A stretch of DNA of 64,000 nucleotides. It comes from Bacteroidota bacterium. GTDB lineage: Bacteria; Bacteroidota; Ignavibacteria; UBA10030; SZUA-254. Of this stretch, positions 37,458 through 48,432 are shown piece after piece. Location: the NCBI GenBank assembly GCA_036522515.1, contig DATDFQ010000057.1, forward strand, positions 5,175-69,174, written 5' to 3'. Position 1 is the stretch's first letter, and every line of letters begins with the position of its first letter. A program made the translations under genes and the position numbers. Below the pieces are notes generated by a model. It was given only the letters and a program-made list of their open reading frames with translations. It searched no databases and was not told where the DNA came from.

Positions 37458-38591
37458 TTATTCCTTATTTCCGCCCCACGCGATCATCAGGCTGAACCGA
37501 AGCGTTCCGTCGAGGGGATGATTCTCTTCGACCGCGGAAAGGTAACTGAAATCGAACCCGTAGACATCATACCGCACGCCCGCTCCGAAGGTGAGGAACT
37601 TCCGGTTTCCGTAGTTCGGGTTTTCGTAGAAGTAGCCGAACCGCAATGCGATGAGCCTCGGGCTCCCGTACCAGTACTCGAGCCCCGTCGCAATGTCGAC
37701 CTTCTTGAGGCCGCCGTCGCCCCACGCGCTGAACAGGGCCTTCGGCAAAGGATCGACCGACGCCGGCGTGATGATCGCGAAGGTGATCGAATCGTCCACT
37801 TCAGGGCGGCGCCGGACGAGGATTCTCGTGAAGTCGAGCACGAGGTTGATGTTGTTGTATTCGGTCTTGATGATCTGGCCCGAAAACGCGAGCCGGAGGT
37901 TGGTCGGCAACGGATCGGCCTGCGCCTGGTCGATATAGGTCAGCTTCGGCCCGAGGTTCGAGAGGTCGAGGCCGATGTTCAACCGGCTGTCGAAAAACGA
38001 CGGCTTCCAGAGGGCGGCAACATCGAAGCTCACCGTCGACGCCACGCCCTGACGGTCCTGCCCCTGGACGTTGAACGGCGCGAGAGAACTTCTGATGTAC
38101 CTGAGGTTCAGTCCCACCCCGAGGTCGGAAAGAACTTTCGTGGAGTATCCCGCCGTGACCGCCATTTCGTACGCCCTGAACGTGCTGATGATGTCGGGCG
38201 TGTCCCGTGTCTCGTTAAACTCGCCCAGGCTCTCGTACGTCAGGGTCGCCGAGATCGTGCCTCCGATGTCGTCGATGTGGTTTCTGTACGCAAGATAGTC
38301 GTAAAAGAGGTCGCTCTGCTGGAACTGCGGAAGCAGATTCGAGTGGGTGATGCTGACTTCCTGGCCGGGCAGGAATGCGAGCCCCGCCGGGTTCCAGAAC
38401 GCGGCAGCCGCGTCATCGGCGAGCGCGCCGCCCGCTTCTCCCATCGCGTCCGCGCGCGCGTTCGGAGCGAGAAGCAAAAACGGCACCGCAGATTCGCCCT
38501 GCGCCTCCGCCGTCCGGGGCACTGCCAGCAGGCAGCATGCGGCGGCGATTGTGATCCAGGAGAGATTTCTCCTTGTCCGGTCTGAAATCAT
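37458..38591 (-). CDS. porV: T9SS outer-membrane shuttle protein PorV
   Basis: AQGESAVPFLLLAPNARADAMGEAG, FWNPAGLAF, NLGPKLTY, PLPTNLR, GNRKFLTFGAG, HPLDGTLRFSL. Start MISDR at 38591. Confidence 0.9.
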   Translation of the reverse strand: MISDRTRRNLSWITIAAACCLLAVPRTAEAQGESAVPFLLLAPNARADAMGEAGGALADDAAAAFWNPAGLAFLPGQEVSITHSNLLPQFQQSDLFYDYLAYRNHIDDIGGTISATLTYESLGEFNETRDTPDIISTFRAYEMAVTAGYSTKVLSDLGVGLNLRYIRSSLAPFNVQGQDRQGVASTVSFDVAALWKPSFFDSRLNIGLDLSNLGPKLTYIDQAQADPLPTNLRLAFSGQIIKTEYNNINLVLDFTRILVRRRPEVDDSITFAIITPASVDPLPKALFSAWGDGGLKKVDIATGLEYWYGSPRLIALRFGYFYENPNYGNRKFLTFGAGVRYDVYGFDFSYLSAVEENHPLDGTLRFSLMIAWGGNKE

Positions 38592-38659
38592 AGCGAGTAT
38601 CCTTTTATGAGTGGAAATGTGAGACGAATTGACCGATTCCCAGGCGTCTAGGGGATTAT

Positions 38660-38688
38660 AATGTAGCACGTTACGCCGTAATAAGCAA
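38660..38688 (-). promoter_or_regulatory. Putative sigma70 promoter of the porV operon
   Basis: Minus strand TTGCTT-N17-TACATT with a TG extension. Confidence 0.4.
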
Positions 38689-38726
38689 TTACCTGCATCA
38701 CAAGATGCCTTCATAAACTACCCCCG

Positions 38727-38835: not shown

Positions 38836-41800
38836 TCATCTGATAATGCTCAATTTGCCGAGGACTTCCTTCGAAAACCTGCCGTCCTGAGTCCTGGCGA
38901 TTAATTTATAAAGATAGACTCCGTTGGCGAGGAGATCGCCGTCGCGGTCGCGCCCGTCCCACGGAATCTGGACAAAATGCTCGTTGAGATTCGCTTTCTT
39001 CAGCGACTGGATCATGCGGCCGGCGACGGTGTAAATCTTGACCTCCGCGTCGACTCCGGAGACCTGGCTCTGCTCGAAGGTGAACAGGGTCGTGGAGGAG
39101 AACGGGTTGGGATAATTGTAGACGTTGGTGATATCCAACCCCGCGCCTTCCAGGACGCTGAAGATCGTCTCCGTCATGGTGGAATTGTTGTAGGTGTCCC
39201 ACGCGCGCATCCTGAGCTTGTGGCTTCCCGCCGGGAGCGTTCCGAACCGGTACTCGACCGTGCCTTCCTGGTAGGTATCCGTCTTGCTCTGATAGAACGC
39301 GCTCAGGTCGATGCTCTCGGGCTGGTCGTCAAGCCAGGCTTCCAGCCGGTGCCCGACTCCGGAGCCCGACGTGTTGATCCCGCTGACGTCGGAGAGGTCC
39401 GCAATAAATAACGGCGTTGCGCTGACGATGTCGCCCGGCCTGAATCCCCTGCTGTCGAGATAGAGCCGGAGGAGCGGACCTGTCGAGTCGGGGACCGCCG
39501 CCGAGTCGGATCCGCCCACGCGGACGTTTGCGGTATATCCCGCGCCGTCGGTGGAGCCGTTCCAGAAATAGGTGGTGATGCGTCCGAAGTCGTTCCGGTA
39601 GGAGATGTCTTTCGGCACGACGAATGTCGAGCTGATGGTTCCGTTGTTCAGCGTCGCGGCGCCCCGGAACAGGACGCTCCCTTCCGTCCTGAACGTGACG
39701 AGCCCGGCGTCGGGATCGGTGAGCTGGATCGTCCCCTGGGCGTCGTTCACGACGATCTGGGCCTGCCCGGAGACGGGGAGGATTCCCGACGATGCGGTAT
39801 CCCGGACCGTGGCGGTGACCGCCGCATGGCTGAGGGCCTGAAGCTGGGCCGTCAGCGACGCGGGCTGGTGGTTGATGCTGTCCACGGAGGCATAGAGCCG
39901 GGGAAAGGCGATGCTCAGCGCCGGATCACCCAGCAAAAAGTATTTTCTGTCGTTGTCGGTCGTCCGGATCTGCTTCGCGCGGTAGACCACGTCGCCCAGA
40001 CGCTGCGGCAACACCCGCCCCGCGCTGTCGAGCTGGAACAGGTTCTGGAACACGATCACGTTGAGCGTGGCGTTCAGGCTCTGGAACACCGGCCTCGTGG
40101 CCGAGAATGTCGCAATCGCCCCCGCGCCGGGCATAGTCTGCAGCAATTCCCCGCCGCTCTGCTGATCGAGCTGGTCGAAGGCCGAGAAATTGCACGTCGC
40201 CGCCACCAGGAAAAAATATTTCCCCTTGTTGTGAAACTGGGGGAAGTCCGTCGCGTTCACGAGACAGTGCTCGTGCGTCCACAGCTGCGGGTTGCCGTGT
40301 CCCGAAAAATTCATGATCATCGTTCCCTGGTTCACCTGGTCGATGATGGCCGCGGTCACCCCGGGCTTCCTTCGTCCTTCGGGCGTGAAGACAGTCGGAT
40401 ACTCGAACTCGTAAATCTTCTTCACGTCGAAGAGCGGCGGAATCCTGCGGGCGACGTCCTCCGCCTGGTCCATGTGCTGGGTTCCGTCGTTTTCTATCGT
40501 TCCGTTCGGGAGCACGCCCGCCAGGGCGTCGTCCGCCACGAAGGTGGCGCGGATCTTCCACGGATCCTCGACCGGGTTTGTTTCATATTCGACGATCTTG
40601 TCGACGACCGTGTTCGCCTCCTGCGCCGACCGGACTGTCAGGCGCCCCACCCCCAGGTCGACGCGCACGTTATTGTCGAGGATGGCGAAATCGTCGTCGC
40701 TGGCATAGGTGCCGAGCGGATCGAACGACTCGACGGTTTCCCACGCCGGTATCCAGTCGGGGCCGGTGGCGACAATCCTTCGATAATCGTAGTCGCCGTC
40801 GCCGAACAGCAGGAGGTACTTCGGGGGACGCGACCAGTTCGAATAGACGTACCGGAGATAATTGCGGATCGCGACGGGGCTCGGCAGGCCGCCGCCGAAT
40901 TCGTTGTAGATATCGTCGACATCGACCACGAGGGACCGCAGCGGATTCGGCGCCTGTTGCTCGCGGAAGGTTCTCAGCCGCTGCGCCGCGCCGTCAAAGT
41001 CGGGATGCGTGACGATGATGTAGTCGGCCTCCGCCGGATCGCCGTGGAGATTCTGATTGGGGACCCGCGAAAGCTGGCCCGGGGTCTTGAACCCGTTCGC
41101 GCCCACCGCGTAGAATTCTTTCGCGCTTCCCGCCGCCAGCTGAACCTGAAACGAACAGGTGTCGGCCGAGACGCGCGGGCCCGAAACGAACACGGCGCTG
41201 TCGAATTTCGTCACGTCGAACACGAGCACCGGGCCGCCGCTGAACCCCGTCACGTCGTACCCGGCCGCCGCCGAAGTATCCTGCGCCCGGAAGTTGAAGA
41301 GGTCGTTTTGCGCCTGCAGCTTCCGCCTGTAAAAGATCTCATACCAATCGACGTATCCGGTCCCTCCCACGTTCGATGTCGAATAGGCGAACCGGAGCTG
41401 GCTCTGCCCGTCCGAGAAGGCGGGCTGGATCGACCTCACGAGCACCGCGTCGGTGAGCTGCCTCGCAAGATCGTTTCCGACGTCGGTTCCGCTCAGGATC
41501 ACGTTCGCGCCGAGCTGAACCCCGTGTTCCTTGATCGCGAACGTCGAGAAATCGTGGGATTGGGCTCCGACGTGAAACCGGTAGCTGATCTGCTGGGAAT
41601 TGTCGAGGCCGGGAAGCGAAGTGACGTACGTCGCCTGCTCTCCGTTGCTCATCGGCGGGCCAAGCCATTCCTGGCCGGAGGAGAGAAGATTCACACGGTC
41701 ATCCTCGCGTGATTCCATGCCGAGAATCGTGGTGACCGCCGGGACTCCGGGCTGATTCAGGGAAGGCGAGACCGCCATCGCCTTCGCCGGCGTGTTCCCG

Positions 41801-42891
41801 TACGTCAGCCAGCAATAGTCTGTCTCGGTAAAATGGTTTATGTAATGGCTGAAGGAGCGCGTCGCCGGATTGTAGGTCCATCCCCGCACGCCCTTCGCGT
41901 AGAAGGCGACATAGTCGCCGGGATCCAACGCGCCCTGGCTTCCCCCGTCGAACGTATAGACCGCGTTTTCGATGAGGTCGTCCGCCGAGGGTGCGGTGAC
42001 GGCAGCCGGGAGCTCAAATCCGCCGTTCCCGAAGATTCGGATCGTCTTCGGATCCGTTCCCGAGGGAATCCCCGCGTTCAGCAAGGCCTGGCCTGTGAGC
42101 TTGTACACTCCGTCGGCCGCGATCGGAAACCGGTACCAGACTCCGCTGCTCAGTACGCTGTTGCGGAGGGTCGCGGCCCGGCGTCCGGGGGATCCGGAAA
42201 GGGTGGAACTGAACGCCGCCTCATTGAGCGCGAGGCCCCGGGCCATCGGGTCATTGGAGGCCGCAGCGGCGCCCTCTCCCCCGAAATTTACCCGCACGAG
42301 GATGCGGGTATATTTCCTGAGGGTCCGGAGTCCGGCGTTATACTGCATCGGTGAAATCGTGAGATCCCCGAGAATCATCCTTCTGCTCTCCCCTACGTTC
42401 TCCAGGGTGGCAATCCGGCCGGGAAGAAACTCCGTCCGAGAATACGCCGCCCGGTCGGGCGCGTAGGAACGAACCGGATCAAGTTCGCCAGGGTGGAGGC
42501 CGGCGACGGGAAGGAGCGTCACGTTGGGGATATCCTCATAATCCGCTTTCAGGATTTCGACGCTGTTCCCGGCCCGGTCCGGAAGCCGAAGAGGTATCCG
42601 GCGGACGCGCAGCTCGGGCTCACCCGGGAGCGGCCGCCCCGAAACGACAGCGCCCTCGAAATCGTACCGGACGAACTCCTGGCCCGGGGAAGGGACGCGG
42701 GAAGGCGTCCGGAATTGCGGTTCGTAGAGTACCGTGACTCCGTTTCTATCCGATTGCACGATCTGTATCTCCCTTGACCCGCCATACGACGGGGAGATGC
42801 CTCCGGATACGGTGGAGCAAAGAATAATGGATGTAAGGAGAAATGACGCCTCCTTGTTCGTGGTCGCGATATTGGTCCTGTAAGTGATCAA
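38836..42891 (-). CDS. porU: T9SS sortase PorU (gingipain C25 family)
   Basis: NFSGHG and AATC catalytic His/Cys, YLLLFGDGDYD, YFLLGDPAL, DSTGPLLRLYLD, CTD YNYPNPF. Start uncertain: the ORF extends to 42999, but a terminator at 42917-42959 suggests a start such as TTG 42891. Confidence 0.92.
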   Translation of the reverse strand: MITYRTNIATTNKEASFLLTSIILCSTVSGGISPSYGGSREIQIVQSDRNGVTVLYEPQFRTPSRVPSPGQEFVRYDFEGAVVSGRPLPGEPELRVRRIPLRLPDRAGNSVEILKADYEDIPNVTLLPVAGLHPGELDPVRSYAPDRAAYSRTEFLPGRIATLENVGESRRMILGDLTISPMQYNAGLRTLRKYTRILVRVNFGGEGAAAASNDPMARGLALNEAAFSSTLSGSPGRRAATLRNSVLSSGVWYRFPIAADGVYKLTGQALLNAGIPSGTDPKTIRIFGNGGFELPAAVTAPSADDLIENAVYTFDGGSQGALDPGDYVAFYAKGVRGWTYNPATRSFSHYINHFTETDYCWLTYGNTPAKAMAVSPSLNQPGVPAVTTILGMESREDDRVNLLSSGQEWLGPPMSNGEQATYVTSLPGLDNSQQISYRFHVGAQSHDFSTFAIKEHGVQLGANVILSGTDVGNDLARQLTDAVLVRSIQPAFSDGQSQLRFAYSTSNVGGTGYVDWYEIFYRRKLQAQNDLFNFRAQDTSAAAGYDVTGFSGGPVLVFDVTKFDSAVFVSGPRVSADTCSFQVQLAAGSAKEFYAVGANGFKTPGQLSRVPNQNLHGDPAEADYIIVTHPDFDGAAQRLRTFREQQAPNPLRSLVVDVDDIYNEFGGGLPSPVAIRNYLRYVYSNWSRPPKYLLLFGDGDYDYRRIVATGPDWIPAWETVESFDPLGTYASDDDFAILDNNVRVDLGVGRLTVRSAQEANTVVDKIVEYETNPVEDPWKIRATFVADDALAGVLPNGTIENDGTQHMDQAEDVARRIPPLFDVKKIYEFEYPTVFTPEGRRKPGVTAAIIDQVNQGTMIMNFSGHGNPQLWTHEHCLVNATDFPQFHNKGKYFFLVAATCNFSAFDQLDQQSGGELLQTMPGAGAIATFSATRPVFQSLNATLNVIVFQNLFQLDSAGRVLPQRLGDVVYRAKQIRTTDNDRKYFLLGDPALSIAFPRLYASVDSINHQPASLTAQLQALSHAAVTATVRDTASSGILPVSGQAQIVVNDAQGTIQLTDPDAGLVTFRTEGSVLFRGAATLNNGTISSTFVVPKDISYRNDFGRITTYFWNGSTDGAGYTANVRVGGSDSAAVPDSTGPLLRLYLDSRGFRPGDIVSATPLFIADLSDVSGINTSGSGVGHRLEAWLDDQPESIDLSAFYQSKTDTYQEGTVEYRFGTLPAGSHKLRMRAWDTYNNSTMTETIFSVLEGAGLDITNVYNYPNPFSSTTLFTFEQSQVSGVDAEVKIYTVAGRMIQSLKKANLNEHFVQIPWDGRDRDGDLLANGVYLYKLIARTQDGRFSKEVLGKLSIIR

Positions 42892-42916
42892 GATGCCGCA
42901 TCGTGCTGCCGTGCGT

Positions 42917-42959
42917 AAAACAAAAAGACCGAATGTCAGAGAACCCTGACATTCGGTCT
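42917..42959 (-). terminator. Intrinsic terminator
   Basis: Perfect 14-bp stem AGACCGAATGTCAG/CTGACATTCGGTCT with a 6-nt loop, followed on the minus strand by TTTTGTTTT. Confidence 0.8.
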
Positions 42960-43135
42960 GGACGGCATGATGTTCTATCATTCCGCAGCAGATTGTCAAA
43001 GGTTCCGGGTTTGAAAAAAGAAGAATTCAGCGATCAGCGCCGAATTCATCAACTCGAGGGGTTACCCCCTGGACGGAAAAAGAACCTTTAACAAAATCTC
43101 TATGCGGTCGGTCCGGTATAATAGTGAAACAATTT
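42917..43135 (-). ncRNA. Candidate structured RNA of about 200 nt (6S-like RNA or attenuator leader)
   Basis: Own promoter and terminator; long closing stem (43082-43107 with 42983-43005); GNRA-capped hairpin; G-U wobbles valid only on the minus strand. Confidence 0.55.
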
Positions 43136-43141
43136 CGAAGA

Positions 43142-43170
43142 AATATAGGAATTCTAAGGGGTAATGTCAA
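43142..43170 (-). promoter_or_regulatory. Putative strong sigma70 promoter for the candidate RNA and/or porU
   Basis: Minus strand TTGACA-N17-TATATT. Confidence 0.6.
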
Positions 43171-43178
43171 GACCCGAG

Positions 43179-43207
43179 TTGTTTATTACCCGAATAATTC
43201 GTAAATT
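43179..43207 (+). promoter_or_regulatory. Putative sigma70 promoter of the glgA-like operon
   Basis: TTGTTT-N17-TAAATT, back to back with the minus-strand promoter. Confidence 0.35.
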
Positions 43208-43248
43208 ATTTTGAAATCTCTCGTTTTTCCTACAATTTATGTGACCCA

Positions 43249-44115
43249 ATGGCCAAGCCGATAGGAATCCTCTACGTCGCGAGTGAGGCGGATCCCTTTA
43301 TCAAGTCAGGGAGTATCGGAGAACTTGCCGGCAGCCTGCCCAAGACCGTCCGATCAATGGGTCATGACATCCGTGTCATGCTTCCCGGGTACGGGAGTAT
43401 CAACACCCGCCGTTTCCAGATACACAATCTTCTCCGGATGAAGGACATCGAAATCCCCATCGGGGGAAAAATGGAGCAGGCGAGCGTGCGATCCTCTTAC
43501 CTGAACAGCGAGAATCAAAAGGTCCTGGTCTACTTCCTCGCCAACGACCGGTTTTTCAGCAGGGACGGCCTCTATTTCCACCCCTCGACCAAGAAATACT
43601 TTGCCGACAACGACGAGCGGTTCATTTTCTTCTGCCGCGGCGTTCTCGAGACGCTGAAAAAATTACGCTGGCAACCGGACATCATTCACTGCAACGACTG
43701 GCAGTGCGGACTGATCCCGGCATACCTGAACTCGATCTACAAAAACGATCCCTACTTCAAGCGGATGAAGACCGTGTTTACGGTGTTCAGCCTCGCTTCC
43801 CACGGCTCGTTCCCGAAAAATTCGTTCGAGAAAGCCGGCCTCCCCTCGCATGTCTGCGGCACGAACGGGGACGGGATGGGGCGGTTTAATTTCCTCTCTG
43901 CCGGCCTGACATTCGCGGACGTCATCACCACGCTCGGCAACCGCGCGGAGCAGGGTATCCGGATCGCGCCCCAGGACGGCGTCGACAAGATCCTGCAGGC
44001 CCGGAAGAACAGCATCGTCTCCATGGGGACGGAAACACACAACGGAAACGGAAACGGATTGCTAGCCCGAAAATTCATTGACGTCTATCGAGAGCTGGCA
44101 AAAAACGGCCGATGA
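43249..44115 (+). CDS. Glycogen/starch synthase catalytic-domain-only protein (GT5 N-terminal half)
   Basis: ILYVASEADPFIKSG, IRVMLPGYG, DNDERFIFFCRGVLE, PDIIHCNDWQCGLIP; only 288 aa. Confidence 0.85.
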   Translation: MAKPIGILYVASEADPFIKSGSIGELAGSLPKTVRSMGHDIRVMLPGYGSINTRRFQIHNLLRMKDIEIPIGGKMEQASVRSSYLNSENQKVLVYFLANDRFFSRDGLYFHPSTKKYFADNDERFIFFCRGVLETLKKLRWQPDIIHCNDWQCGLIPAYLNSIYKNDPYFKRMKTVFTVFSLASHGSFPKNSFEKAGLPSHVCGTNGDGMGRFNFLSAGLTFADVITTLGNRAEQGIRIAPQDGVDKILQARKNSIVSMGTETHNGNGNGLLARKFIDVYRELAKNGR

Positions 44116-44696
44116 ACCGTATAGGGATTTTTCTCGACCGCGACGGCACCATTAATGAAGAAGTAGATTATCTTTCCTCTCCGCTCGACCTTCACCTGAT
44201 CCCCGGCGCGGCGGACGCCATCCGCGAAGCCAACGAATCCGGATTTAAGGTATTTATCATCACCAACCAGTCCGGAATCGCCCGGGGCATCCTCACCGAG
44301 GAACGATTGGCGGAAATCCACGCGGCTCTCGTCTCCGCGCTCGCAAGGCAGCATGCGACGATCGACAAGATTTACTATTGCCCCCACCATCCCGATTTCG
44401 GAGAACCCCCCTTCCGGGCGGTCTGCAATTGCCGCAAGCCGGGAACCGGAATGATCGATGCGGCTGTTCGGGAGTTCGGGATCGACATATCGAAATCGTT
44501 CGTGATCGGCGACCGGATGATTGATGTCCAGACCGGAAACAACGCCGGCGCGGCCTCGATCCTCGTTCTCACCGGCTACGGGCGGAAAGAACTGGAACTC
44601 TGCCGCCTGAACGGGGTTCCCGTCGGGCATGTCGCCGAAGATCTCCCCGATGCAATCCACTATGTCAAGCAGACATTCCAGCAGGTGGTGTCCTAA
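44112..44696 (+). CDS. gmhB: HAD-IIIA phosphatase, GmhB-like
   Basis: FLDRDGTIN, ITNQSGIARG, YYCPHHP, CNCRKPGTGM, VIGDRMIDV. Confidence 0.88.
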   Translation: MNRIGIFLDRDGTINEEVDYLSSPLDLHLIPGAADAIREANESGFKVFIITNQSGIARGILTEERLAEIHAALVSALARQHATIDKIYYCPHHPDFGEPPFRAVCNCRKPGTGMIDAAVREFGIDISKSFVIGDRMIDVQTGNNAGAASILVLTGYGRKELELCRLNGVPVGHVAEDLPDAIHYVKQTFQQVVS

Positions 44697-45846
44697 CTTG
44701 TTCAGATCGGTTGTTCGGAAATTCGTTTCCATCTTAGCGCTCGCAAGTTTCCTCTCCGGTTGCAGCGACCAGCCCGCCGATGTGGGGATGGGCCTCCTCA
44801 CCGCGCAGGACACGCTCCATTTGGAGACACGGGTGTTCGGCGCGACGTCGGCCGCGAATTTTCTCACGAGGATCAACGGCAATTCGGGGAGGGTGCTCGT
44901 CGGCACTTTTCAGGATCTCGAGGCGAACGCGCTCATCGAATACACGGGTATCCCCAAATTCATTTCCGGCTCCACACTCGATTCCGCGACGATCACGCTC
45001 ACCGTCGATTATCGTTTCAGGGACACGACGGGGGAATTCGGAATCTCCGCCCACAACATGATCAGGCCCTGGGGGACCGCATCCTTCCGGTGGGACAGCA
45101 TTCCGGGTTCCTATGACAACGCGCTCGCGGGAGCGTATTTGAAGTCGATCTCCGCCTCGGACACCATGTCGACCCTCACCTTCCGGATCGACACGGCCCT
45201 CGTCCGGACCTGGTCGCAGACCGGAACCGGCTCGCTCCTTTTGATGCCATCTCTCACCGCGCAGATCATCCTCGGGTTCTCGACCGTGTCGAACACCCTC
45301 TCGGACTCCAGGCCGCTCCTGACCATTAACACCCGCGACAGCGCGGGGACGCCGGACACGCTCAGAATCCGCGCGCCCCGGAGCATCTTTGTCGCCAACT
45401 CGACGATTCCTGCGGCGGCCCAGCGTACGTTCATCCAGGCGGGGGTCGATTACCCGGTGCTCCTCCGGTTCGATTCGCTCGCGCTTCCCCCGAAGGTGAG
45501 CGTCGTGGAAGCTTCGCTCGAGTTTGCGATCGACGAGGGAACCTCCCTCCTGAACCGGTACTCGCGCGACTCCCTGATCGCGTACCTGACCAGGAAAGAT
45601 GTCTACCCCTACGATTCCCTCATTCTGGGAGCCGTGTGCAGCCCGGAACGGATCGGACTCCAGAAATATTACAAGGCGAACGTGAGGAACATCGTCCAGC
45701 AGTGGATCACGCACGAGCCCAATCACGGCTTGGCGATCCATTCCTATGCGGAATTCACGACTCTCGACCGGTTCGCGGTCTATGGAGCGGATGCTCCTCC
45801 GAACCTTCGGCCCAAACTGACCGTTTCCTACACTCTTTTCCCGTAG
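44662..45846 (+). CDS. Hypothetical lipoprotein (DUF4270-like by context)
   Basis: Lipobox FLSGC; beta-rich mature part; located downstream of a short glycogen-synthase-like gene, as DUF4270 is in Bacteroidota. Start uncertain (44662 or TTG 44698). Confidence 0.6.
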   Translation: MSSRHSSRWCPNLFRSVVRKFVSILALASFLSGCSDQPADVGMGLLTAQDTLHLETRVFGATSAANFLTRINGNSGRVLVGTFQDLEANALIEYTGIPKFISGSTLDSATITLTVDYRFRDTTGEFGISAHNMIRPWGTASFRWDSIPGSYDNALAGAYLKSISASDTMSTLTFRIDTALVRTWSQTGTGSLLLMPSLTAQIILGFSTVSNTLSDSRPLLTINTRDSAGTPDTLRIRAPRSIFVANSTIPAAAQRTFIQAGVDYPVLLRFDSLALPPKVSVVEASLEFAIDEGTSLLNRYSRDSLIAYLTRKDVYPYDSLILGAVCSPERIGLQKYYKANVRNIVQQWITHEPNHGLAIHSYAEFTTLDRFAVYGADAPPNLRPKLTVSYTLFP

Positions 45847-45856
45847 CGACTCCAGC

Positions 45857-47122
45857 GTGATGACAACCCGAACCACACTCTTGCGCCTCCTCCTTCTATT
45901 GGCCATGTGTACGGCCGCGGCTTTTGCCGGGGGCGGGGGGTCCGTTTACACGCGCCACGGGATAGGGGATCTGCGGTACGGAACCTCGGGCCGGGGGACA
46001 GGAATGGGAGGGGTGGGGATCGCGCTTCTCTCTTCGGGCGTCGTCGACCCGCTCAACCCCGCCACGTGGGGAGTCGACAACAGGACCCAGTTTTCCATCA
46101 GCGGTTTTTACGAAGGGTTCGCTTCCAGCGACGACAGGAACTCGACCTATCTGAGCCAGGCCTCCTTCAACGGCCTGATGTTTGCGATACCCCTCATTCC
46201 CCGCTGGGGCGTCGTGCTCGGAGCCGGCATCACGCCCTACAGCAGAGTCGATTATAATATCGTCTCCCCTTCCTCCCAGAACGGATACGACTATACCGTC
46301 CGGTACCAGGGGGACGGGGGCCTCTCGCAGGGACACCTCGGGTTTTCCGCGATGCCCGACAGCCAGCTCCTGCTGGGGGCGAAGATGAACTATTATTTCG
46401 GAACGATCCGGAACACGCTGGACCAGTCGTTTACGCCGGCCCAGTACACAGACGCCGAGGATATCCGGCTGACGCGTTTCAACGGGCTGGGAGCGACGTT
46501 CGGTATCGTCTACCGCGGACTGAAGAACATTCTGAATCTCCCTGCGGGCCAGACGCTCAACATCGGCGCCGTCGTTTCCACGGTATCGCGGATGAACTCC
46601 GCGGAGGAACGCTACTTCACCTATACGACTTCGTCGCTTACGACGCGGGATACCGTCCTCAATCCCGAAGGGACCACGCGCCTTCCGCTTGCGGCCGGGG
46701 GCGGGATCGCCTTCACGGCGGAGCGGTACTCGCTCGGAGCCGACTTCACCTACCAGAACTGGAACGCGTACACGGTGAATGACGTAAAATCCCCCGACGT
46801 GCGCGACAGTTACAGGTTCAGCGCCGGGGGGGAACTCATCCCGAAGCGGGAAGCCTCCGCTCCGTTCTTCCAGCGCCTCGCCTACCGGGCCGGTTTTTTC
46901 TACGATGCGAGTTACTACGATATCAAGGGCGAGCCGATCAACGAGATCGGCTTTACCGCCGGGATCGGCGTGCCGATCGTTTCCGATACGCGGTTGCATT
47001 TTACGACAGGGTACAGCTTCCGCGGCACAACCGACCAGCAACTGCAGAAGGACCGCATCCTGCGGTTTACCGTCACCCTGACCGCGGGTGAACTCTGGTT
47101 CGTACGGCCCCCGGAAGAATGA
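45857..47122 (+). CDS. FadL/OmpP1-like outer-membrane beta-barrel protein
   Basis: [49 protein letters not shown] end. Confidence 0.7.
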
Positions 47123-48432
47123 GCGCGCTTTCAAAACAGGATCCGGAGATCTACGATGCGATCCGGCGCGAAATTGAGAGGCAGGACTCGAAGTTCGAGC
47201 TGATCGCCTCGGAGAATTTCGTCAGCACCGCGGTGCTGGAGGCGCTGGGCTCCGTCCTGACGAACAAATACGCCGAGGGCTACCCCGGAAAACGCTACTA
47301 CGGCGGATGCGAGTTTGTCGATATCGCGGAAAACCTCGCCCGCGACCGGGCCAGGCAATTGTTCTCGGCCGCTTATGCGAACGTGCAGCCGCACTCGGGG
47401 TCGCAGGCGAACATGGCCGTCTACTTCACGTTCGTCAAGCCGGGCGACACGATCATGGGCATGAACCTTTCTCACGGAGGCCATCTCACCCACGGGTCGC
47501 CGGTTAATTTTTCGGGCCAGCTCTACAGGTTCGTCGCCTACGGCGTGAGGCGGGACACCGGGCTGATCGACTACGACGAAGTCGAGTCGGTCGCGCTGCG
47601 CGAGAAGCCGAAGATGATCACTGTCGGCGCGAGCGCCTACTCCCGGAACATCGACTATCAGGCGTTCCGCGTCATCGCCGACAAGATCGGAGCCTTCCTG
47701 TTCGCCGATATCGCGCACCCCGCCGGCCTGATCGCCAAGAAACTCCTCAACGATCCGATTCCCCACTGCCACGTGGTAACCTCGACGACGCACAAGACCC
47801 TTCGCGGGCCCCGGGGCGGCCTGATCCTCATGGGAACGGATATTGAAAATCCATTCGGCCAGAAAGCGGCGAAGTCCGGGAGGACAAAACTCATGTCCGA
47901 GCTGATCGACTCGATGGTCATCCCCGGAATACAGGGCGGGCCGCTGATGCACGTGATCGCCGCAAAGGCCGTCGGATTTCTGGAAAACCTTCAGCCCGGG
48001 TTCGCGACCTACGCCGCCCAGGTCATCAGGAACGCCCGGGCGCTCGCGGCGCGCTTGACGAGCCTCGGCTACGATGTGATCTCCGGGGGAACCGATAATC
48101 ACCTGATGCTCGTTGATTTACGGAACAAGAACACGACCGGGAAAGACGCGCAGGAGTCCCTCGACAGAGCCGGGATCACCGTCAACAAGAACGCGGTCCC
48201 ATTCGACGACAAGAGCCCGCTGATCACCAGCGGCATCCGGATCGGAACGCCCGCCCTCACCACGCGCGGGATGCGGGAGCCCGAAATGGAGATCGTGGGA
48301 GGATTGATCGATCAGGTCCTCGCACACAGGGGCGACGCCGGCGTGGAGAAAACGGTGGAGGAGAGCGTGCGGCAGTTATGCGCGAAGTTTCCCCTGTACC
48401 CGGGACTGACAGGCCGGACTCACTCCGGGTGA
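47119..48432 (+). CDS. glyA: Serine hydroxymethyltransferase
   Basis: [72 protein letters not shown]. Confidence 0.98.

Follow-up and report, generated by a model that had tools for sequence, protein, structure and literature searches.

The minus strand of the divergent intergenic region at 42917-43248 of the window, the 64-kb (64,000-nucleotide) stretch of soil metagenome DNA analysed here, encodes a structured RNA that is probably the 5′ leader of the porU-porV operon, which specifies the attachment complex of a type IX secretion system (T9SS), and that would act in cis as a transcription attenuator. The element recurs in about 45 distinct loci among Ignavibacteriota-type MAGs and metagenomes, mostly uncultured, and, as judged by comparing these sequences, it is an RNA family without an Rfam model that would work by a known kind of mechanism. 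Its members combine a promoter, a leader and an intrinsic terminator lying 8-31 nt before the ORF, with no promoter between; a conserved pairing of strand B with strand C that competes with the terminator, although mutual exclusion may be less strict in a porV-type subfamily; and a stable linkage to porU/porV while the upstream genes vary. The preliminary description of this DNA had inferred a 6S RNA and named a switchable leader controlling the T9SS sortase as the alternative. It is the alternative that the competing pairing, the fixed linkage and the position of the terminator before the start support.

On the minus strand, porU (38836..42891; Peptidase_C25, 1351 aa from the TTG at 42891) is the first gene 3′ of the terminator, and it is followed by porV (37458..38714), the second gene of the operon, and then by the gene for a cargo protein that ends in a T9SS-type C-terminal sorting domain. 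The opposite flank is occupied by a short glycogen-synthase-like gene, here called glgA-like (43249-44115, plus strand), whose 288-aa product has the N-terminal Glyco_transf_5 domain only, a truncated form that is kept in 80/80 loci. The stop codon of this gene is overlapped by 4 nt by a HAD-type hydrolase gene (44112-44696, plus strand). The stretch from the leader promoter to the glgA-like start (43171-43248) holds a conserved AT-rich motif, AATTTACGAATT on the minus strand and TTCGTAAATTATTTTG on the plus strand, which also occurs in L001-L025 and presumably serves the glgA-like gene as its divergent promoter. Farther out, 44629-47134 contains two pairs of long ORFs on opposite strands (44629-45846 plus with 44734-45906 minus, and 45857-47122 plus with 45896-47134 minus), and no Pfam match was obtained for these pairs on either strand.

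Transcription of the leader is predicted to start from the promoter that had been proposed for the minus strand, TTGACA-N17-TATATT, which is present at 43170..43142 (TTGACA at 43170-43165, a 17-nt spacer and TATATT at 43147-43142) and agrees with the consensus at 11/12 positions. It is the sole site of its kind in the 64 kb, with 0 expected in shuffles, and its form CTTGACAAT-N14-CTATATT has identical spacing in 25/25 genome loci; by its sequence the promoter appears strong and constitutive. The predicted RNA starts at about 43135 and is about 215 nt long. Near its 5′-end lies a conserved motif, UUGUUUCAC (43124..43132, minus strand; family consensus AUGUUYCAY-NNN-GGAGU), which is positioned about 30 nt 5′ of strand A, resembles a mini-ORF MFHxGV and has UGU in common with strands A and C. 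A second promoter starting from a TTGACA within strand B was considered and rejected, as no -10-like element occurs at 16-18 nt in the window, L001, L005, L006 or L008; a TATAAG found at a -10-like distance in L004 is probably due to chance.

At the other end of the leader, porU likely starts at an in-frame TTG, position 42891, since L001 shares the N-terminal YRxNIAT and the two proteins align from residue 1. This codon lies 26 nt past the U tract, the measured counterpart of the roughly 25 nt between terminator and porU start given earlier. In the loci read by eye, start codons lie 8-31 nt 3′ of the U tract, which leaves no room for a promoter belonging to porU/porV themselves, so that transcription must read through the terminator. 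A 68-codon ORF (42746-42952, minus strand) begins at an AUG in the terminator 5′ strand and runs across the porU start out of frame with porU; both the window and L001 have this frame open, but L004 and L008 meet stops after 13-20 codons, and the ORF is probably spurious.

P1, a long closing helix, forms the backbone of the leader. For the 224-nt stretch the computed folding energy is -81.6 kcal/mol (z = -6.6 relative to dinucleotide shuffles; z = -5.5 for the opposite strand), and the closing arms, pyrimidine-rich unpaired segments and two hairpins named in the preliminary description all reappear on the minus strand in the minimum free energy (MFE) fold. The 5′ strand of P1, strand A, is the 26-nt CCGCAUAGAGAUUUUGUUAAAGGUUC (43107..43082, minus strand), which consists of an outer part CCGCAUAGAG and a nearly invariant core UUGUUAAAGGUU at 43094-43083. 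Its partner, strand B, is the 23-nt GAACCUUUGACAAUCUGCUGCGG (43005..42983, minus strand), with the core AACCUUUGACAA at 43004-42993 and the outer part UCUGCUGCGG; in the window strand B contains CCUUUGACA, and the A:B duplex amounts to -25.8 kcal/mol. P1 encloses a variable apical domain (43023..43070, minus strand) made of the hairpins AGGGGGUAACCCCU (43070..43057) and GAAUUCGGCG-CUGAU-CGCUGAAUUC (43047..43023) and of pyrimidine-rich joining strands. Between P1 and the terminator, a small linker hairpin AUGAUAGAACAUCAU (42967..42981, minus strand) is lineage-specific and does not occur in L001/L002.

The same architecture is folded by each of the 25 sequences in the first alignment, where the 12-bp P1 core is 94.3% paired. 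Within this core one A-U pair has been lost on both strands in four lineages, a compensatory 1-bp deletion, and a U.G pair is kept in 24/25 sequences. Family-wide, folding favours the sense over the antisense strand in 43/43 members, by 15 kcal/mol on average, and the earlier argument that G-U pairs mark the minus strand thus holds for the family as well as for the window. The outer part of P1 is unalignable, and here 24 nt on each side of the core were paired with their own partners or with those of other lineages: own partners reach -14.0 kcal/mol and mismatched ones -9.0 kcal/mol (z = -8.75; composition control z = -1.1). Across the family the P1 helix measures 26-35 bp, and the domain that it encloses is likewise unalignable, with one or two hairpins, 36-82 nt and no conserved sequence; in L014, P1 continues as a nearly continuous rod. 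Invariant columns are confined to P1 and the terminator.

The terminator (42959..42926, minus strand) has a 15-bp stem, one pair longer than the 14 bp first assigned to it, and is followed by the U tract UUUUUGUUUU that ends at 42917; its presence on the minus strand stands as described, and its computed stability is -23.6 kcal/mol. Its 5′ strand and loop form strand C, AGACCGAAUGUCAGGGUUC (42941..42959), and strand C pairs with strand D, UCUGACAUUCGGUCU, which together with the U tract UUUUUGUUUU occupies 42917..42940. Across the alignment the terminator is 90.8% paired, with six pairs changed on both sides; 0/500 shuffles reach its covariation score and 1/500 reaches its number of pairs with changes on both sides. 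Together with the z of -8.75 for outer P1, this provides the conserved covarying structure in the glgA-porU regions of relatives that had been proposed as a check. In its lower part, CCGAAUG/CAUUCGG, the terminator stem shows an invariance that exceeds the needs of pairing alone.

Strand C and the terminator loop imitate strand A and are complementary to strand B. In the window, the mimic AUGUCAGGGUUC within strand C (42952-42941, minus strand) corresponds to UUGUUAAAGGUUC in strand A, so that A, B and C plus loop form the triple UUGUUAAAGGUUC / GAACCUUUGACAA / AUGUCAGGGUUC, and the B:C duplex has 12 bp, one bulge and -14.4 kcal/mol. A triple of this kind changes together across lineages, as in UUGUUAAAGG / CCUUUGACAA / UGUCAGGG. 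A competing pairing had been postulated earlier in the form UUCCG/CGGAA; that pair exists in the window and is missing even in the closest relatives, L001-L003, and what persists of the proposal is a competing pairing between B and C plus loop. In a fixed 8-bp register, 92.6% of B:C cells are paired, against 26-48% when the partner is slid. No both-side changes occur in this register, and column shuffles give 92.9%, so the fixed-register evidence is one of conservation and not of covariation. The covariation signal for B:C comes from alignment-free tests and from lineage-specific extensions. Own partners exceed mismatched ones at z = -5.0 for 25 lineages and z = -8.8 for 35 lineages, with composition controls at z = -1.8 to -2.3. 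When strand A was blocked in silico, nascent C paired with the B region in 29/42 transcripts.

The lineage-specific matches between B and C plus loop are CCUUGACA with UGUCAAGG in L009 and L010; CUCUGACA with UGUCGGAG in the L022 group and L086; GCCAGA with UCUGGC in L106; and CACCC with GGGUG in L088. The U-to-C change in B of the L022 group breaks one P1 pair. In L116, CCUUU in B faces AAAGG in the unpaired loop, and in L115 the 3′ strand of P1 has an 18-bp match with the upper hairpin (-24 kcal/mol). All three strands can be followed in L126 and L134 (A AAGAGU, B ACUCUU, C/loop GGAGUC) and in L140 (A GCGAGAGAG, B UUUUCUCG, C/loop AUGAGAGAG). The porV-type subfamily (L130/L131/L133/L136/L142) has UUGUUAGAG as A and CUCUAACAA as B, and a 9-11-nt loop with GUUAGAG, GCUAGAG or GUUGGAG. 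Here B pairs mostly with the terminator loop, which on sequence grounds could produce a pseudoknot instead of a mutually exclusive fold, and the sign of the effect is then uncertain. Such four-way complementarity accounts for helices that are conserved in sequence, since any change in B or C needs two compensations. In L140/L141, a mimic hairpin GACCAAAU...UUUGGUC (about 200-30 nt 5′ of porV, locus 500-670) lacks a U tract and is followed by an ACCAAAU repeat and a separate GC-rich terminator, a layout that suggests a role of the mimic hairpin apart from termination.

The distribution of the element was established along three routes. Species-representative genomes were searched with the glgA-like protein, which yielded 80 loci, all from Ignavibacteriota-type MAGs. 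All loci that have at least 58% glgA identity and sufficient upstream sequence (25 including the window) carry the element on the same strand as porU, and porU is 3′ of the element in 25/25 of these genome loci. From 5′ to 3′ the family layout reads CTTGACAAT-N14-CTATATT, a variable 35-45 nt, UUUUGUUAAAGGUU, 36-82 nt of variable sequence, AACCUUUGACAA, a linker that also varies, and the hairpin ACCGAAUGUCAGGG...CUGACAUUCGGU with U6-9; 171-225 nt separate the -10 box from the end of the U tract. A covariance model, R1, was built from the 25 sequences. It detects one copy in the 64-kb window and gives 0 matches in the 55 more distant loci (L026-L080), where glgA does not adjoin porU. As this first set had been picked through glgA, metagenome contigs were scanned with a pattern for the terminator only. 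The terminator sequence alone is unspecific: of the 49 matches, 22 are plain terminators that follow unrelated genes, and the remaining 27 carry the element, including L126, which matches R1 weakly and has porV directly downstream as judged from its N-terminus. The next gene is porU or porV in all of these 27 loci whose contig is long enough. The third route, through PorV homologues, retrieved the porV loci of Ignavibacteriales (L130-L142), in which porV is monocistronic and has upstream of it a leader that is built alike but shorter.

The genes upstream of the element differ among these loci. A TonB-dependent receptor replaces glgA in L106/L122, with porU downstream; porV stands directly behind the element in L088, L115 and L117, and the upstream gene, where on the contig, is a pyrimidine-nucleoside phosphorylase in L088 and L117; and the neighbours of L130-L142 are dnaX or an unnamed gene beside a dodecin gene. 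The element immediately precedes porU, or porV at loci that lack porU; it is linked to porU/porV and not to glgA, and this linkage is stable across rearrangements. Each of the P1 arms, the terminator and the promoter occurs once in the 64-kb window, which rules out a repeat or mobile hairpin element. Some local variations accompany this arrangement. A small signal-peptide gene is inserted between the leader terminator and porU in L016, L099, L019 and L125; those in L016 (2137-2676, minus strand) and L019 (2153-2584, minus strand) are signal-peptide/lipoprotein-like, the inserted genes encode 143-179 aa, and these two proteins are unlike each other by eye. In L130, L131, L133, L136 and L142, the leader promoter combines TTGACA with a Bacteroidota-style TAnnTT(T)G (for example TACCTTTG), and near the 5′-end of the leader is an AAAGGAG/AAAGGA that no start codon follows. 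Downstream of porV, L130, L131, L133, L135 and L142 carry a convergently oriented CHASE2-sensor adenylate/guanylate cyclase gene.

In the proposed mechanism, the promoter would start the RNA of about 215 nt, and A and B would pair as P1 around the variable apical domain. With P1 formed, B would be locked, C would pair with D and transcription would stop, so that P1 would act as an anti-antiterminator. If A is blocked or P1 opened, B could pair with nascent C and its loop before D is made; this B:C antiterminator would hinder the terminator, and RNA polymerase would read into porU/porV. We infer this direction of the switch, in which B:C favours read-through, from the arrangement of the strands. 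P1 (about -26 kcal/mol) is much stronger than B:C (-14.4 kcal/mol), so that without an active factor the switch would always be in the terminating state; something would thus be needed that holds A or opens P1. Its variability makes the apical domain unsuitable as a ligand pocket or aptamer, and the best guess is a trans-acting factor, protein or RNA, with specificity for the conserved UUGUUA-type single strand within A. The fuller proposal, that the sensor is the single strand UUGUUA(A/G)AG(G) of P1, read by a trans-acting protein or small RNA which decides on synthesis of the attachment complex and making the element a new class of cis-regulatory RNA, is tentative and on balance somewhat doubtful. 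Three metatranscriptomes contain short contigs of relatives, 90-95% identical over longer matches, that span strand B or the second apical hairpin, the terminator and 30-70 nt beyond. These contigs are short, shallow and possibly DNA carry-over, and they hint faintly at read-through transcripts, with which they are compatible. No metatranscriptome fragments were found for L020.

Three-helix attenuators such as the PyrR-controlled pyr leaders of Bacillus and the four-segment trp leader of E. coli share this plan. They likewise have a promoter, an untranslated leader and an intrinsic terminator before the regulated genes; their segment 2 (the counterpart of B) pairs with 1 (A) or 3 (C), and 3 pairs with 4 (D); and an upstream stem-loop decides if the antiterminator strand is free. 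The porU/porV leader differs in having no sequence similarity to these leaders, no PyrR-type binding loop and no conserved leader peptide. Its anti-antiterminator helix is of unusual length (26-35 bp) and encloses a hypervariable insert, its competing partner in the porV-type subfamily is the terminator loop, and the genes that it would regulate belong to a secretion system.

The 6S interpretation, in which the RNA would bind a sigma-70-type holoenzyme by open-promoter mimicry, is now very improbable. Size, a long closing helix and an own promoter are indeed shared with 6S (RF00013) and 6S-Flavo (RF01685) RNAs, although the length (171-225 nt in the family, about 150-200 nt for 6S) does not discriminate; promoter and terminator would suit a stand-alone RNA gene, and no other 6S RNA occurs in the window, a point of little weight with 64 kb searched. 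The Rfam search that had been proposed as a check (6S, 6S-Flavo and riboswitch models) returned no match of any kind at gathering score in the window and 18 related loci, and neither RF00013 nor RF01685 matched a 701-nt stretch at E<=10 with lax filters. In place of a conserved central bubble the family has a variable junction with one or two hairpins, or the nearly continuous rod of L014, and its conserved nucleotides belong to the terminator and to a helix that is perfectly paired. Strict linkage to porU/porV would also be left unexplained, as a global regulator of RNA polymerase has no reason for it. On model search, structure and context the 6S reading is therefore rejected. The same Rfam result bears on a metabolite riboswitch with a P1-enclosed aptamer, which, taken together with a 5′ processing or stability element that has an RNase III site in P1 and no role in termination, is unlikely. 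The succession of P1 and terminator does resemble an OFF riboswitch, but an enclosed domain of 36-82 nt with a variable number of hairpins and no conserved nucleotides is the reverse of what makes an aptamer; RNase III could plausibly cleave a helix of 26-35 bp, but a stability element leaves the imitation of strand A by the terminator loop unexplained.

A leader-peptide attenuator of the trp/his type is about as improbable as these. Here a ribosome on the mini-ORF MFHxGV..., about 30 nt 5′ of A, would sit over A and release B for antitermination. Classical attenuators have the same four-strand arrangement, AUGUUYCAY-NNN-GGAGU is a conserved motif that varies at third-codon-like positions, and 28/41 members have an AUG/GUG/UUG ORF that ends from 12 nt 5′ of A onward, usually near or within A. 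In the remaining 13/41, however, the ORF is absent or broken by the lack of a canonical start or by in-frame stops, and the frame is broken even in close relatives (UAA in L024, UGA in L099, UAG/UAA in L025/L018, AUU for AUG in L022 and a 1-nt indel in L020). Stops occur in all three frames relative to A, and in the porV-type subfamily no start codon follows the AAAGGAG. The motif is thus real and the ORF is not conserved, and the candidate peptide was rejected. The alternative with the most left to it, still a minority prospect, is that the transcript of about 215 nt is an independent small RNA working in trans, for instance through base-pairing or protein sequestration, with porU/porV served merely by constitutive leakage through the terminator. 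A near-consensus promoter of its own and a strong terminator should make the terminated RNA abundant, and strand A and the terminator stem are conserved beyond pairing needs. Terminated riboswitch leaders can act in trans, as do SreA/SreB of Listeria, which also counts for such a role. Against it, the element never leaves porU/porV though other neighbours change, it is present as a single copy in the 64-kb window, and the three-way relation of the co-changing strands A, B and C would be purposeless in a purely trans-acting RNA. Action in trans and the attenuator model are compatible, and both could hold.

Leader-dependent antitermination is also known from LoaP of Bacillus velezensis and UpxY of Bacteroides capsule loci, both specialised NusG paralogues, and from the EAR element. 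These systems likewise have long 5′ leaders with terminators before envelope- or secretion-related operons, and read-through needs a dedicated factor; they lack the strand-swap design of the porU/porV leader, and no NusG-like gene is found near the window locus. At the level of T9SS regulation, the PorY-PorX-SigP cascade of Porphyromonas gingivalis controls T9SS component genes, including those of the porU/porV type (PMC4800418). It resembles the attenuator in its targets and differs in acting on transcription initiation, through proteins, and in belonging to the class Bacteroidia (PMC4800418). Neither an RNA leader of porU/porV nor control of the T9SS at the RNA level turned up in a search of literature full text.

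Regulation of the T9SS is known only at the protein level (PorXY-SigP), in a few cultured Bacteroidia. An attenuator-like conserved RNA that precedes the sortase and shuttle genes porU/porV in a large and mostly uncultured group would extend this picture; as a structured-RNA family it is new and well supported, with about 45 distinct members and no Rfam model, and its description corrects a tempting but wrong annotation as 6S RNA. If the attenuator model is true, the machinery for cargo attachment would be gated after transcription initiation in these bacteria, and strand A could serve as bait for the signal to which the switch responds. Should strand A itself prove to be the sensor, the leader would represent the first checkpoint in type IX secretion that operates at the RNA level.
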